A stretch of 64,000 nt of DNA from sequence record MN648445. One strand, 5' to 3'. This stretch comes from Escherichia phage FP43. Within the stretch, counting starts at the first letter, position 1; every line of letters begins with the position of its first letter. The notes under the pieces are model-generated. The model ran no database searches, was not told the origin of the DNA, and saw only the letters and a list, made by a program, of their open reading frames with translations. Below, one piece after another: positions 26,775 to 28,763 of this stretch. The position numbers and the translations under genes are program-made.

Positions 26775-26813
26775 GTTTACAACATGGTGGAGTTGTGATA
26801 CTATAACTCTACC
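26775..26813 (+). promoter_or_regulatory. early promoter cassette (PeSL-like)
   Basis: GTTTAC 26775-26780, N18, TACTAT 26799-26804; imperfect 9-bp inverted repeat 26786-26794 / 26805-26813. Confidence 0.6.
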
Positions 26814-26832: not shown

Positions 26833-27069
26833 ATGCTAAGTGAAAACCCAATTACAGTACACGAATTTCAGATTAAAGTAAAAGAATTTGCTCAAGCACT
26901 CATCAATAAAGTGTCTGAACGTTTCCAAGATGCAACATTACGAGTTATTCAAGAATCTCCACGTTCTTTTCTCATAATCGTTAATCCTAAAGATGGTGAC
27001 CAAATTACTAATCTTAAATTAGGCAGTGATGGTCTTGTTGAAGCAACTCGAGTATATGGAACACTATAA
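26833..27069 (+). CDS. hypothetical protein (78 aa)
   Basis: ATG ORF preceded by promoter cassette and RBS GAGGAAA. Confidence 0.5.
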   Translation: MLSENPITVHEFQIKVKEFAQALINKVSERFQDATLRVIQESPRSFLIIVNPKDGDQITNLKLGSDGLVEATRVYGTL

Positions 27070-27187
27070 TGAGAGCTATCTCATTACTATCGAGAATGGT
27101 CATAAATCTGAGCACTACCAACTTAGCCTATCTAATCCGGTTAAAGGTATTGTTGAATCAGAATCTGTTTATATCTCCTAAGGATTG
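27056..27187 (+). CDS. possible small ORF (43 aa)
   Basis: ATG 27056 overlapping the upstream stop; fills the 120-nt gap before the DAHP synthase gene; below the ORF-track size cutoff; weak RBS. Confidence 0.2.
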
Positions 27188-27189
27188 TT

Positions 27190-28182
27190 ATGTTACCTGT
27201 CATCAGAAAACTTATTTCTCCAAAAGAACTGGCTGAGATTATTCCTTTGTCGGAAGCTTACGCATCACAAGTGGCTTCTCATCGCGAACAAGTTAATTCG
27301 ATTATGAACGGTGAAGACCCACGCAAACTTATTGTTGTAGGTCCTTGTTCAATTCATGACCCTATTGCTGCTGTTGAATACGGCAAACGTCTGGCTGAAC
27401 TTCAAACTCGTCTTCCTAATGTTCTGTTAGTGATGCGCGTTTATTTTGAAAAGCCTCGAACTACCGTAGGTTGGAAAGGTCTTGTAAATGATCCATATCT
27501 TGACGGAAGTTTTGATATGAACCACGGTCTTATAGTTGCACGAACATTGTGTCGTAAACTTCTACGTATGGGACTTCCATTAGCAACTGAAGTATTAGAC
27601 CCATTCACGATTAAGTATCTTTCTGGTATTTTCTCATGGGTTGCTATTGGCGCCCGTACGACTGAAAGTCAGACACATCGTGAAATTGCTTCGGGTCTAC
27701 CGATGTGCGTAGGCTTCAAGAACGCAACCAATGGTTCTATTAAAGTAGCTACAGACGCGATGTATAGTGCCGCCTGGCCTCATCGGTATATGGGTATGGA
27801 CGTCGATGGTACTGTAGGCATTGTTGAAGCTGAAGGTAATCAGAATACGCATATCGTATTGCGTGGCGGGACCAACGGCCCGAACTATCATTCTTCTGAT
27901 ATTCAAGAAGCTTCTAACAAAGCAAGGGCAGTAGGTCTGAATCATTATGTAATGGTTGACTGTAGCCATGCAAACGCTGATGGGCATTATAGCAATCAAA
28001 TTGGTATTGGTAAAAATTTAGCAGCTAATGATTTGGTCAAAGGAATTATGATAGAATCATTCCTACATGAAGGAAATCAAAAAATTTCCGATAATATGTC
28101 CTATGGCGTTTCCGTTACCGATGCGTGCATCAGTTGGGAACAAACTAAAGAGCTGTTAACTTATATTAATAAGGTTCAATAA
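27190..28182 (+). CDS. 3-deoxy-D-arabino-heptulosonate-7-phosphate (DAHP) synthase, class I (AroG/F/H-like)
   Basis: 330 aa; VVGPCSIHD and VYFEKPRTTVGWKGL and AIGARTTESQTHRE motifs align with E. coli AroG as recalled. Confidence 0.85.
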   Translation: MLPVIRKLISPKELAEIIPLSEAYASQVASHREQVNSIMNGEDPRKLIVVGPCSIHDPIAAVEYGKRLAELQTRLPNVLLVMRVYFEKPRTTVGWKGLVNDPYLDGSFDMNHGLIVARTLCRKLLRMGLPLATEVLDPFTIKYLSGIFSWVAIGARTTESQTHREIASGLPMCVGFKNATNGSIKVATDAMYSAAWPHRYMGMDVDGTVGIVEAEGNQNTHIVLRGGTNGPNYHSSDIQEASNKARAVGLNHYVMVDCSHANADGHYSNQIGIGKNLAANDLVKGIMIESFLHEGNQKISDNMSYGVSVTDACISWEQTKELLTYINKVQ

Positions 28183-28763
28183 TGAAAGCTAGCACATACC
28201 TTCAGATTGCATATCTGATTTCTCAAGAATCAAAATGTTGTTCATGGAAAGTTGGCGCAGTCATTGAAAAAGATGGGCGCATTATTTCTACTGGGTATAA
28301 CGGTTCACCTGCAGGTGGCGTTAACTGTTGCGAACATGCATCTGAAAATGGTTGGTTGAAGAATAAACCAATCCCAGTCATCGTTGCTGGGCATAAAGAA
28401 GGCACTACAGCATTTGGACGGGCCGATAATTTTGTTTTGGCTAAAGAACATCGGGCTGCTCATAGTGCATGGTCTGCCAATAACGAAATCCATGCGGAAC
28501 TGAATGCAATTTTGTTTGCAGCTCGTAAAGGTAATTCTATTGAAGGTGCTACGTTGTATACGACACTTTCTCCATGTCCTGATTGCACTAAAGCTATTAC
28601 ACAGTCAGGTATTAAAAAGGTTGTATATGCAGAATTATATGACCGATCTCCTGAAAATTGGGCAGACATTCTTAAACAAGCTGGTATTGAAGTAATTCAG
28701 TACTCTCGTAATAATCTTCGTTCTCTGAATTGGGAACAAATCCGAAACTTTTGTGGTGAATAA
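28182..28763 (+). CDS. cd: dCMP deaminase
   Basis: 193 aa as in T4 Cd; HAELNA and PCPDC zinc motifs. Confidence 0.9.
   Translation: MKASTYLQIAYLISQESKCCSWKVGAVIEKDGRIISTGYNGSPAGGVNCCEHASENGWLKNKPIPVIVAGHKEGTTAFGRADNFVLAKEHRAAHSAWSANNEIHAELNAILFAARKGNSIEGATLYTTLSPCPDCTKAITQSGIKKVVYAELYDRSPENWADILKQAGIEVIQYSRNNLRSLNWEQIRNFCGE

Follow-up and report, generated by a model that had tools for sequence, protein, structure and literature searches.

The window, that is the whole stretch of 64,000 nucleotides analysed here, belongs to a T4-like (Mosigvirus) phage and encodes a full-length class I-alpha DAHP synthase with intact catalytic residues. Its feedback pocket differs from that of the cellular enzymes at fixed positions, and its distribution among phages tracks a cassette of a Peptidase_U32-family (U32) gene and a chorismate mutase gene. 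Our leading reading, to which the comparative analysis gives a chance close to but not above even, is that the purpose of the enzyme is the supply of prephenate to the phage U32 enzyme. The gene as such is already known. Its novelty, as suggested by the first-pass annotation, does not hold, as the gene is annotated in about 200 phage genomes; 212 phage records gave a tblastn match, GenBank has a phage protein of 100% identity, and PHROG 5045 is matched over the full length of the product (residues 1-330, E = 2.5e-182; category 'moron, auxiliary metabolic gene and host takeover'). Published papers mention phage DAHP synthase as an auxiliary metabolic gene (AMG) of unknown function (including PMC11845039), and among the papers covered by our literature search there was neither a functional study of a phage DAHP synthase nor one tying it to U32 or prephenate. 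Taken alone, an annotated accessory gene changes nothing; it is the co-occurrence reading and the pocket changes that go beyond the existing annotation, and two testable predictions follow from the closer analysis.

The open reading frame was present as first described, and its assignment to the AroG/AroF/AroH type was corroborated by profile searches, in which the product passed the cut-offs of Pfam DAHP_synth_1 (PF00793; E = 5.2e-75, 252.3 bits, cut-off 25.5) and of the NCBIfam models TIGR00034 aroFGH (428.5 bits, cut-off 173.2) and NF009395 (455.9 bits, cut-off 343). With these scores a chance match can be ruled out. The three sequence blocks on which the assignment had originally been based were located at residues 49-57 (VVGPCSIHD), 88-98 (KPRTTVGWKGL) and 152-161 (AIGARTTESQ), and the best match in a PDB sequence search was E. 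coli AroF (6agm, E = 4e-105). The AF2 model of the phage protein (pLDDT 91.4) superimposes on DAHP synthases of N. meningitidis and E. coli (1KFL, 1GG1, 5DCB) with TM scores of 0.94-0.95 and rmsd values of 1.7-1.8 Å, exhibiting a (β/α)8 barrel with an N-terminal extension and the β6a/6b hairpin (strands 198-203 and 209-214). The metal ligands C53, H260, E289 and D311 correspond to AroG Cys61, His268, Glu302 and Asp326 and are invariant in all 25 phage and all 98 cellular sequences. Likewise, the PEP/E4P residues R83, K88, P89, R90, T91, G154, A155, R156, K177 and R225 are all conserved, and the respective positions in AroG numbering (R92, K97, P98, R99, T100, G163, A164, R165, K186, R234) are invariant in 25/25 sequences of the phage clade. 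Thus, none of the catalytic residues on which the first-pass annotation had made its assignment depend is missing, neither among the four metal ligands nor among the ten PEP/E4P residues, and the product is very probably an active DAHP synthase converting PEP and erythrose-4-phosphate to DAHP.

Compared with AroF, AroG and AroH of E. coli (6AGM, 1KFL, 1QR7), the phage enzyme shares the fold (TM 0.95), the metal ligands and the PEP/E4P residues including the KPRT motif, but is 20-26 residues shorter. It is 47% identical to AroG and 51-53% identical to enterobacterial AroF, and it resembles AroF at the AroG positions 147 (Pro) and 211 (Gly). The KPRT motif separates DAHP synthases from KDO8P synthases. 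A KDO8P-synthase-like activity on arabinose-5-phosphate was rejected, with the KPRT motif being intact and the NCBIfam matches being to DAHP synthase models only. KDO8P synthase is the other enzyme covered by PF00793; a KANRS-type motif is absent from the phage protein.

The DAHP synthases of T4-like phages form a clade that is old and monophyletic, its monophyly being recovered in 50/50 bootstrap trees. Identity to any cellular enzyme is at most about 55%, and with this distance and the monophyly of the clade a recent capture from the host was rejected. The orthologues of PHROG 5045 (JS09_0232, Marfa gp230, CHI14 gp196, EcS1 ORF234 and Proteus PM2 gp158) belong to the same clade and occupy the same site upstream of cd, with identities of 99-100% within Mosigvirus and 57-77% between genera. 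The comparison of synteny around cd that had been proposed at the outset thus revealed a site kept in all five genera examined. Mosigvirus differs from the other genera in that cd.1 is missing, a 41-aa cd.2' scar precedes the gene and a recognisable chorismate mutase is lacking, which the other orthologue genera have. Since pairs within Mosigvirus are too similar for an informative dN/dS (only 3-10 differences per pair), the comparison between genera was used instead, yielding dN values of 0.20-0.40 against a saturated dS of 1.2-2.5.

As outlined in Table 1, the gene is embedded between the cd.2 homologue and cd. All genes of the block are encoded on the + strand in the order gp32, frd, td, nrdA, nrdB, denA, rnlA, alc, pseT, cd.4-cd.2, DAHP synthase and cd, with DNA ligase farther on; the originally described setting in an early nucleotide-metabolism block is borne out by frd, td, nrdA, nrdB and cd. 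The TAATG overlap was found where it had been reported, the TAA stop codon occupying 28180-28182 and the cd start codon 28182-28184, and the DAHP synthase gene is translationally coupled to cd.

Table 1 Features of the DAHP synthase locus in the window and of the encoded protein.
Feature	Position	Strand	Remark
Sigma-70-like promoter match, TTTACA-17-TACTAT with TG	26776..26804	+	cd.3/cd.2 gap; consensus match only
cd.2 homologue, 78 aa, DUF7320	26833..27069	+	last RB69-shared gene before the insert
41-aa ORF, JS09_0231 homologue, phrog_15876	27056..27181, including stop	+	
Left junction TAATGAGAGCTATCTCATT	27066..27084	+	
Segment absent from RB69, ~1.1 kb: cd.2' remnant and DAHP synthase	27085..28178	+	blastn versus RB69
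Shine-Dalgarno-like AAGGA	27180..27184	+	5 nt before the ATG at 27190; read from the sequence
DAHP synthase gene (class I-alpha), 330 aa	27190..28182	+	ATG start
cd, dCMP deaminase, 193 aa	28182..28763	+	start codon overlaps the DAHP synthase stop
KPRT motif	residues 88-91 of the phage protein		
Altered allosteric pocket	I141, K142, G146, P171, Y200, A214		phage numbering

T4 carries cd.2-cd.1-cd at this locus and has no DAHP synthase, in agreement with what the first-pass annotation had stated, and RB69 is devoid of the gene as well. In blastn, homology to RB69 ends at 27084 and restarts at 28179. The left junction resembles the start of cd, TAATGAAAGCTAGCACAT, at 28180-28197, and the two form an imperfect direct repeat (microhomology) flanking the insert. 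For the small upstream ORF the start had been assigned correctly, whereas the end (27187) and the length (43 aa) had to be corrected to the values in Table 1. Over residues 6-40 it can be aligned to the cd.2 family (DUF7320/phrog_1504), of which it covers the C-terminal half; the ORF is a recombination scar, derived from the corresponding half of a second gene of the cd.2 type. Recombination with another T4-like phage brought in the Mosigvirus copy as a cassette; the gene was thus gained and subsequently kept, and about 139 sequenced Mosigvirus isolates retain it. These data also bear on the proposal that the enzyme acts in metabolic sabotage as a PEP/erythrose-4-phosphate sink, or that the gene is a passenger moron kept by linkage and of no benefit to the phage. 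Although the gene lies among small, variable accessory ORFs and RB69 manages without it, this proposal is very improbable: the site beside cd is kept across the genera checked, all 14 catalytic residues are invariant with dN far below dS, the gain by recombination was followed by retention throughout those isolates, and a mere sink would not need a downstream chorismate mutase.

In order to compare the regulatory sites, positions were scanned which are at least 90% conserved in the 98 cellular homologues and at least 90% conserved as another residue in the 25 phage sequences. This unbiased scan returned six of 350 positions, namely P150I, Q151K, D155G, S180P, F209Y and T223A in AroG numbering, the first five of which are inhibitor-site residues as defined in the literature (PMC9529685; enrichment p about 8e-7). 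The replacement residues (Table 1) are fixed in 24-25 of the 25 sequences, which span 55-99% identity. Consequently, the feedback-inhibition residues, whose retention had been raised as a question, are not retained, with P150, Q151, D155, S180 and F209 all being replaced. Furthermore, the N-terminal stretch in front of AroG P19 comprises 8-12 aa in phages, whereas the cellular enzymes have at least 16 aa there. The phage enzyme lacks the N-terminal arm with D6/D7, which in the 1KFL structure is part of the inhibitor pocket and which in AroF, AroG and AroH closes the inhibitor site of the neighbouring subunit. With the pocket residues replaced and the arm lost, the enzyme should escape inhibition by Phe, Tyr and Trp, and we predict that aromatic feedback has probably been lost or changed.

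The comparison with engineered feedback-resistant DAHP synthases points in the same direction. In AroG, the substitutions P150L and S180F confer feedback resistance, and contacts to the inhibitor are made by Q151/Q152 and S180/S181 (PMC9529685); further resistant enzymes are AroG D146N and F209A and variants of AroF. The phage enzyme is altered at the same pocket positions 150, 180 and 209 while its catalytic core is unchanged. In contrast to these single laboratory changes, the phage enzyme combines five altered positions with an altered N-terminus, which occur naturally and are fixed across at least seven genera, its resistance being predicted. A natural DAHP synthase whose pocket is rebuilt where metabolic engineers mutate would be available as an already deregulated enzyme and could serve to study the allostery of the class I-alpha type. 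With regard to isozyme type, the protein scored 364.5 bits against the NCBIfam AroG equivalog NF006723 (cut-off 568) and 386.7 bits against the AroH model NF009396 (of the subfamily kind; cut-off 463). Since both scores fall below the isozyme cut-offs, the GenBank label 'Tyr-sensitive' is unsupported. An AroF-specific equivalog was not among the NCBIfam models listed.

Alternatively, the pocket could have been re-specified instead of lost, placing the enzyme under the control of another ligand, e.g. prephenate, chorismate or a nucleotide from the pathway to modified dCTP. Because the substituted residues are strictly conserved, which decay of an unused pocket would not give, the pocket may bind a new effector rather than be dead, and the β6a/6b hairpin and the pocket-building N-terminal helices are kept in the AF2 model. 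Nevertheless, we regard a re-specified pocket as improbable: changes such as Pro to Ile and Ser to Pro are similar to mutations known to give feedback resistance by just blocking binding, the conservation could stem from a role of the same residues in the dimer interface, and the ligand cannot be deduced from the sequence. Such a re-specification concerns regulation only and fits any proposed purpose of the enzyme.

Regarding the purpose, the distribution of the gene is informative. JS09_0134 is a Peptidase_U32 member (PF01136, E = 7e-11), and the phage U32 gene is present in 221 phage records. By host genus, the numbers of U32 versus DAHP synthase records are 26 vs 25 for Klebsiella, 7 vs 7 for Proteus, 7 vs 6 for Serratia, 4 vs 4 for Enterobacter, 3 vs 3 for Edwardsiella and 136 vs 124 for Escherichia; co-occurrence was judged from these counts and from sampled rows, and shared ancestry of the genera explains part of it. 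The DAHP synthase tracks the cassette of U32 and chorismate mutase and not the wider arabinosylation genes. A tie to the arabinose branch, i.e. a drain on erythrose-4-phosphate or pentose phosphates for UDP-arabinose, was rejected as the primary link because the U32 distribution matches that of the DAHP synthase far better: the 368 records of the arabinose-activation gene extend to 57 Acinetobacter phages and to Dhakavirus, which are without DAHP synthase. The U32/chorismate mutase module lies outside the window, and its presence in this phage is deduced from relatives that are 99.4% identical over 3.5 kb around the gene, among them UGJNEcP2, which carries both the DAHP synthase and the U32 gene. 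At the profile level the phage U32 protein is a family member, while pairwise BLAST against E. coli RlhA, TrhP, UbiU and UbiV was not significant. Its assignment by BLASTP to the subfamily of RlhA, TrhP or UbiU was accordingly rejected, NCBIfam giving just an 18-bit UbiU match.

The chorismate mutase, recognised by Pfam CM_2 with 40.9 and 46.2 bits (cut-off 27), sits between the U32 gene and the thymidylate synthase (TS)-like 5-hydroxy-dCMP (5hodCMP) synthase gene in Entb_45 and EcS1. It was found by tblastn in 53 records, where the annotated copies adjoin a 'peptidase' and/or a 'thymidylate synthase', and it lies next to U32 in Kanagawa-, Kagamiyama-, Winkler-, Marfa-, Braga- and Tegunavirus-type phages. 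In the controls without U32 and chorismate mutase (Bp7 and Acinetobacter phage Minot) the TS-like gene is present and the module contains no such cassette. The corresponding Mosigvirus slot holds a 53-aa ORF without chorismate mutase similarity, and a degraded chorismate mutase was rejected for this slot, with tblastn and Pfam both blank.

Several published observations provide the framework for the leading reading. Mosigvirus DNA carries arabinosyl-5-hydroxycytosine, and RB69 gp48, a TS-like flavoenzyme, is a 5hodCMP synthase which uses O2 and needs neither U32 nor DAHP synthase (PMC13326640). The U32 enzymes RlhA, TrhP and UbiU/V carry out prephenate-dependent, O2-independent hydroxylations (PMC5727448, PMC6599085, PMC10990095): RlhA makes 5-hydroxycytidine (ho5C) and needs prephenate and Fe-S (PMC5727448), TrhO (O2) and TrhP (prephenate) represent dual routes (PMC6599085), and prephenate is the oxygen donor in UbiU/V-dependent ubiquinone synthesis (PMC10990095). 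With respect to the published flavoenzyme, which makes 5hodCMP with O2, U32 was rejected as the sole cytosine hydroxylase, and only an anaerobic branch is proposed for it. In this proposal a feedback-blind DAHP synthase would re-open the host shikimate pathway after infection, even in rich or gut conditions, in which the host DAHP synthase isozymes are repressed and inhibited. The flux would run from DAHP through host AroB..AroC to chorismate, by phage or host chorismate mutase to prephenate and finally to U32, whose step would be the anaerobic branch making the 5-hydroxycytosine that the phages arabinosylate in DNA, parallel to the published flavin/O2-dependent 5hodCMP route. The demand of the modification is stoichiometric, with about 64,000 C per genome. 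The first-pass annotation had surmised that the product may serve a non-canonical use, a notion which stands as a possibility. Falling slightly short of an even chance in our estimate, the phage DAHP synthase may thus be not an amino-acid AMG but the entry enzyme of a prephenate line to O2-independent 5-hydroxycytosine. Against a role in prephenate supply stand the published 5hodCMP synthase, for which U32 and DAHP synthase are dispensable, RB69, which makes arabinosyl-5-hydroxycytosine DNA without DAHP synthase or chorismate mutase, and the Yersinia phages, which combine U32 and chorismate mutase apparently without DAHP synthase.

The main rival to the prephenate reading is aromatic amino-acid supply, according to which a deregulated DAHP synthase as an ordinary AMG lifts the Phe, Tyr and Trp available for phage protein synthesis after host shut-off. 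This is the default reading in the literature (PMC11845039). A feedback-blind enzyme fits it too. Moreover, the long ORFs of the AT-rich window contain 4.3% F, 4.0% Y and 1.4% W, and the total of 9.7% exceeds the roughly 8% of E. coli. We nonetheless consider it rather unlikely, since amino-acid supply accounts neither for the confinement of the gene to phages with the U32 cassette nor for a chorismate mutase inside the DNA-modification operon, between the U32 and 5hodCMP synthase genes. In addition, hundreds of equally AT-rich T-even phages, T4 included, as well as the Dhakavirus and Acinetobacter relatives, lack the gene, and a cell in the gut or in rich medium can take up aromatic amino acids.

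Chorismate-derived cofactors constitute a further conceivable purpose, be it p-aminobenzoate (pABA) and folate for reactions of the thymidylate synthase family and for baseplate folate, or quinones. T4-type phages are heavy folate users, and the gene shares its block with frd, td, nrdAB and cd. Still, catalytic amounts of a cofactor suffice, the DAHP synthase gene is not accompanied by pabA/B/C or fol genes, the chorismate mutase of the sister genera draws chorismate off the pABA and quinone branches, and T4 with equal folate needs does without the gene, so that we judge the cofactor proposal highly unlikely.

Returning to prephenate supply, the proposed logic of the phages would resemble the TrhO/TrhP-type duality, with an O2-dependent and a prephenate-consuming route to the same C5-hydroxypyrimidine. 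Among the known products of U32 enzymes, RlhA ho5C2501 and TrhP ho5U34, the 5-hydroxycytidine of RlhA exhibits the same base chemistry as phage 5-hydroxycytosine. The phage U32 is very divergent from the cellular hydroxylases, and it would act on a deoxynucleotide or on DNA, at the scale of a genome. To our knowledge, no dedicated DAHP synthase or chorismate mutase accompanies the U32 hydroxylases in cells. In cyanophage S-B43, CmoA/CmoX generate carboxymethylcytosine, likewise a genome-wide cytosine modification using prephenate as co-substrate, but by Cx-SAM carboxymethyl transfer and with no phage-encoded supply enzymes reported; its authors pose prephenate availability as an open question (PMC12783734). 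The close co-distribution of the DAHP synthase with U32 and chorismate mutase, which lie beside the 5hodCMP synthase gene, suggests an O2-free hydroxylation of tens of thousands of cytosines per genome in gut phages. If true, this would explain the source of prephenate, the supply question raised for that other phage DNA modification (PMC12783734), and three phage gene families would gain a function, of which PHROGs at present labels one pair as 'peptidase' and 'unknown function'. It would furthermore add DNA precursors to RNA and quinones as targets of prephenate-dependent hydroxylation, provide enteric T4-like phages with an anaerobic counterpart to the flavin/O2-dependent 5hodCMP synthase, and represent the first virus that rewires aromatic metabolism for an organic oxygen donor in DNA hypermodification.

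Finally, the region was inspected for transcription signals. A terminator scan of 24.8-29.6 kb found no terminator-like sites on the + strand. The promoter and terminator scans carry little weight, because the region yields fewer matches than its shuffled sequence. At the position matching the sigma-70-like promoter candidate of Table 1, T4 has an annotated early promoter.

The 330-aa ORF ahead of the dCMP deaminase gene cd, for which the first-pass annotation had proposed a class I DAHP synthase, proved to be as described in start, end and length, and all three sequence blocks quoted for it are present. The assignment is borne out by matches to Pfam DAHP_synth_1 (E=5.2e-75) and to the NCBIfam models TIGR00034 (428.5 bits, cut-off 173.2) and NF009395 (455.9 bits, cut-off 343), the closest solved structure being E. 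coli AroF (6agm, E=4e-105). AAGGA is found 5 nt upstream of the start codon, and the reported TAATG overlap with cd is real, with one A common to the TAA (28180-28182) and the cd ATG. On the plus strand the genes are ordered gp32, frd, td, nrdA, nrdB, denA, rnlA, alc, pseT, cd.4-cd.2 (small ORFs), DAHP synthase and cd, with ligase further on, and the earlier label of a nucleotide-metabolism block is therefore correct. No tRNA genes were found in the 64-kb window.

Coordinates of the features in the window and in relatives (L-numbers, local coordinates on stretches of the relatives' genomes)
Feature	Record	Coordinates	Strand	Remark
41-aa ORF (phrog_15876)	window	27056..27181	+	chimera; annotated in relatives
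55-aa ORF	window	27069..27236	+	from TAATG ending cd.2; overlaps DAHP synthase start
DAHP synthase, 330 aa	window	27190..28182	+	ATG start; sequence and profile matches
cd (dCMP deaminase), 193 aa	window	ATG 28182-28184	+	start overlaps DAHP synthase stop
U32 gene, JS09	NC_024124	143,822-144,982 (L013 23823-24983)		outside window
U32 and CM cassette, Entb_45	L015	3989-5397
U32 and CM cassette, EcS1	L014	11174-12690
Homing endonuclease gene, Proteus phage PM2	L008	2106-2822
cd, RB69	NC_004928	133,742-134,251 (L002 13743-14252)		annotated 510 nt

In 25/25 phage sequences no variation occurs at the four metal ligands C53, H260, E289 and D311 or at ten PEP/E4P-binding residues, KPRT among them. 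The AlphaFold model is confident (pLDDT 91.4) and matches the N. meningitidis and E. coli DAHP synthases with TM 0.94-0.95 and rmsd 1.7-1.8 Å. Between genera dN amounts to 0.20-0.40, with dS saturated at 1.2-2.5. Within Mosigvirus (window 27190..28179 versus JS09, mogra and 348Ecol098PP) the 3-10 nucleotide differences per pair are too few to interpret; most pairs show more non-synonymous than synonymous changes (e.g. 6 vs 3), some of them in the first seven codons (I5V, R6G), in counts that are likewise too small.

The 3.5 kb around the gene are 99.4% identical to Escherichia phages UGJNEcP1/2 and 98.8% to JS09, and the window therefore derives from a Mosigvirus (RB69-like T-even phage). The protein is 100% identical to its counterpart in phage NBG1, and tblastn located homologues in 212 phage records (139 at ≥95%, 47 at 60-80% and 26 at <60% identity). 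It forms PHROG 5045 (E=2.5e-182), categorized under 'moron, auxiliary metabolic gene and host takeover', and was reported as a domain hit in phiC120 (PMC8022965), named as present in Mosigvirus in a set of AMGs of unknown function (bioRxiv 10.1101/2020.01.19.911818) and, for a Klebsiella phage, classed with the amino-acid AMGs (PMC11845039). The first-pass annotation had itself stated that routine annotation in relatives would make the gene real and not novel; since it is an already catalogued phage AMG, its novelty is lost. The literature searches returned no published functional test of a phage DAHP synthase. What our analysis adds is the specific prediction that feedback control is lost or altered, and a testable hypothesis of prephenate supply. 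Outside the T4-like clade, homologues at 35-48% identity also turn up in 'phage' records that are fragmentary or unrelated (Aeromonas phage HJ05, 'Bacteriophage sp.' faecal contigs, a 13-kb contig of Acinetobacter phage MD-2021a, a 2.4-kb record of Salmonella phage S.Kent), and may be independent captures or host contamination.

The feedback residues, whose retention the first-pass annotation had wanted checked, are not retained: five inhibitor-site residues are substituted and the N-terminus is shortened. All 350 AroG positions were scanned for residues conserved to ≥90% in 98 cellular homologues and to ≥90% as a different residue in the phage clade, which yielded six positions only, namely P150I, Q151K, D155G, S180P, F209Y and T223A (residues 141, 142, 146, 171, 200 and 214 of the window protein). 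Five of these six are on the list of inhibitor-site residues drawn from the AroG-Phe and AroF-Tyr structures and feedback-resistant mutants (PMC9529685; enrichment p about 8e-7). P150L, S180F and F209A confer feedback resistance, Q151 and S180 contact the inhibitor and D155 stabilises the site (PMC9529685). The sixth, T223, is two residues away from V221 in the same hairpin. Furthermore, only 8-12 residues precede the position of AroG P19 in the phages vs at least 16 in cells, so that the N-terminal arm, which in the 1KFL structure supplies D6/D7 to the pocket of the neighbouring subunit, is missing. The protein also scores under the NCBIfam cut-offs for the AroG equivalog and the AroH model. 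From the pocket substitutions, the short N-terminus and these scores we predict that the phage enzyme is insensitive to Phe, Tyr and Trp and that the GenBank label 'Tyr-sensitive' is unfounded. Possibly the pocket has instead been re-specified for another ligand, because the replacement residues are themselves fixed in the phage clade.

RB69-type phages are known to arabinosylate their DNA (PMC6024577; PMC13326640), and a connection with this modification was suspected first. It was abandoned, as the gene for arabinose activation (RB69 ORF52/53) has a far broader distribution, with 368 records that include Dhakavirus, 57 Acinetobacter phages and others.

The hypermodification module between genes 43 and uvsX, which for FP43 lies outside the window and which we infer from near-identical genomes, also encodes a 'peptidase' that belongs to Peptidase_U32 (PF01136, E=7e-11). 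This U32 gene, outside Mosigvirus together with a following gene, sits immediately 5' of the gene for the thymidylate-synthase-like 5-hydroxy-dCMP synthase. In every non-Mosigvirus genus examined, the small intervening gene is a type II chorismate mutase (CM; CM_2, 40.9 and 46.2 bits, cut-off 27); PHROGs labels the two 'peptidase' and 'unknown function'. CM was detected by tblastn in 53 records and, where annotated, neighbours 'peptidase' and/or 'thymidylate synthase'. U32 occurs in 221 records (82-100% identical), and its host-genus spread closely parallels that of DAHP synthase (U32/DAHP synthase records: Escherichia 136/124, Klebsiella 26/25, Shigella 14/12, Proteus 7/7, Serratia 7/6, Enterobacter 4/4, Edwardsiella 3/3), a co-occurrence based on genus counts and sampled rows and partly phylogenetic. 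Among 16 sampled non-Mosigvirus records with DAHP synthase, 12 were seen directly with U32 and/or CM and none was seen without. By genus counts, phages with arabinose genes that lack U32 also lack DAHP synthase, and the cassette is absent from the module of two such controls, Dhakavirus Bp7 and Acinetobacter phage Minot. Yersinia phages have U32 and CM and apparently no DAHP synthase; RB69 has neither DAHP synthase nor CM, yet makes the modified base. In Mosigvirus the CM slot (JS09, L013 24980-25263) is occupied by a lone 53-aa ORF in which no similarity to CM was detected, and Mosigvirus would need host PheA/TyrA for prephenate.

The O2-independent U32 hydroxylases RlhA (5-hydroxycytidine 2501 of 23S rRNA), TrhP (5-hydroxyuridine 34 of tRNA) and UbiU/V all need prephenate, and for the UbiU/V-dependent ubiquinone hydroxylations it has been demonstrated that prephenate donates the oxygen (PMC5727448, PMC6599085, PMC10990095); phage U32 is too divergent from RlhA, TrhP, UbiU and UbiV for pairwise similarity. 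Mosigvirus DNA carries arabinosylated 5-hydroxycytosine; the 5hodCMP synthase described for this pathway in a 2026 NAR paper is a homologue of TS that depends on flavin and O2, and nowhere does that paper refer to U32, prephenate, chorismate or DAHP (PMC13326640). A feedback-blind DAHP synthase, CM and a U32 enzyme would be exactly the parts required for a prephenate-fed anaerobic branch of cytosine hydroxylation, echoing the cellular TrhO/TrhP pair. The phages with these parts infect facultative anaerobes and also encode nrdD/nrdG; relatives on the strict aerobe Acinetobacter lack the parts. With about 64,000 cytosines per genome, a stoichiometric demand would reach millions of prephenate molecules per burst and would fall in rich medium or the gut, where host enzymes are feedback-inhibited. 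Where the prephenate comes from has already been asked for a cyanophage that uses it up in making carboxymethylcytosine (PMC12783734). The main rival, that the enzyme simply raises aromatic amino acids for phage protein synthesis, accords with an F+Y+W content of 9.7% in the window's long ORFs; it leaves unexplained both the confinement to U32-bearing phages and the CM within a DNA-modification operon. On gene content we tentatively propose, at slightly less than even chances, that DAHP synthase serves to provide prephenate for hydroxylating DNA bases without oxygen.

Identity to cellular homologues is at most about 50-55%, and the 25 phage-clade sequences were monophyletic in 50/50 bootstrap NJ trees with no cellular sequence inside, pointing to a single ancient acquisition without a recognizable donor. 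Ahead of cd, T4 reads cd.2-cd.1-cd, in agreement with the earlier remark that it lacks the gene, and RB69, likewise without it, reads cd.2-cd. The same pseT-cd interval holds the gene in Marfavirus, Winklervirus (CHI14), Bragavirus (Proteus PM2) and Kagamiyamavirus (EcS1), either immediately 5' of cd or with one or two small ORFs between. In PM2 a homing endonuclease gene separates pseT from the cd.x/DAHP synthase genes and could be a vehicle moving this block between phages.

Homology to RB69 ends at 27084 and restarts at 28179. The left junction, TAATGAGAGCTATCTCATT, is similar to the cd start TAATGAAAGCTAGCACAT at the right junction and leads directly into the C-terminal half of a second cd.2-like gene, cd.2' (DUF7320 43-76; phrog_1504 44-76). 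In the simplest reading, a cd.2'-DAHP synthase-cd fragment from another T4-like phage would have recombined into an RB69-like ancestor, with one crossover in cd and the other at the microhomology; a precise deletion in RB69 between short repeats may have occurred instead. The small upstream ORF noted in the first pass starts where claimed, at 27056, and ends at 27181 with 41 rather than 43 aa. Its codons 1-5 are the out-of-frame 3' end of cd.2 and the remainder is the C-terminal half of the second cd.2-like gene, and the ORF is probably a scar left by recombination and not a working gene. The 55-aa ORF, whose first residues MRAISLL resemble the cd start MKASTYL, is most likely no gene, having arisen as a side effect of the microhomology at the junction.

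In the cd.3/cd.2 gap, at the place of an early promoter in T4, there is a promoter-like site, after which no terminator-like site was found on the plus strand; this is weakly consistent with early co-transcription of DAHP synthase with cd. The top sigma-70-like matches of the region (10/12, with TG) are antisense within the DAHP synthase gene (28014..27986, minus strand) and are probably due to chance, because the region has fewer such matches than its shuffles (9 vs a mean of 14). RB69 cd is annotated shorter than in the window and T4 (582 nt), and its translation shifts frame near the C-terminus and then returns (ILKPSWY* ... NNLRSLNWEQIRNFCGE), which suggests a sequencing error such as those described before in other RB69 genes.
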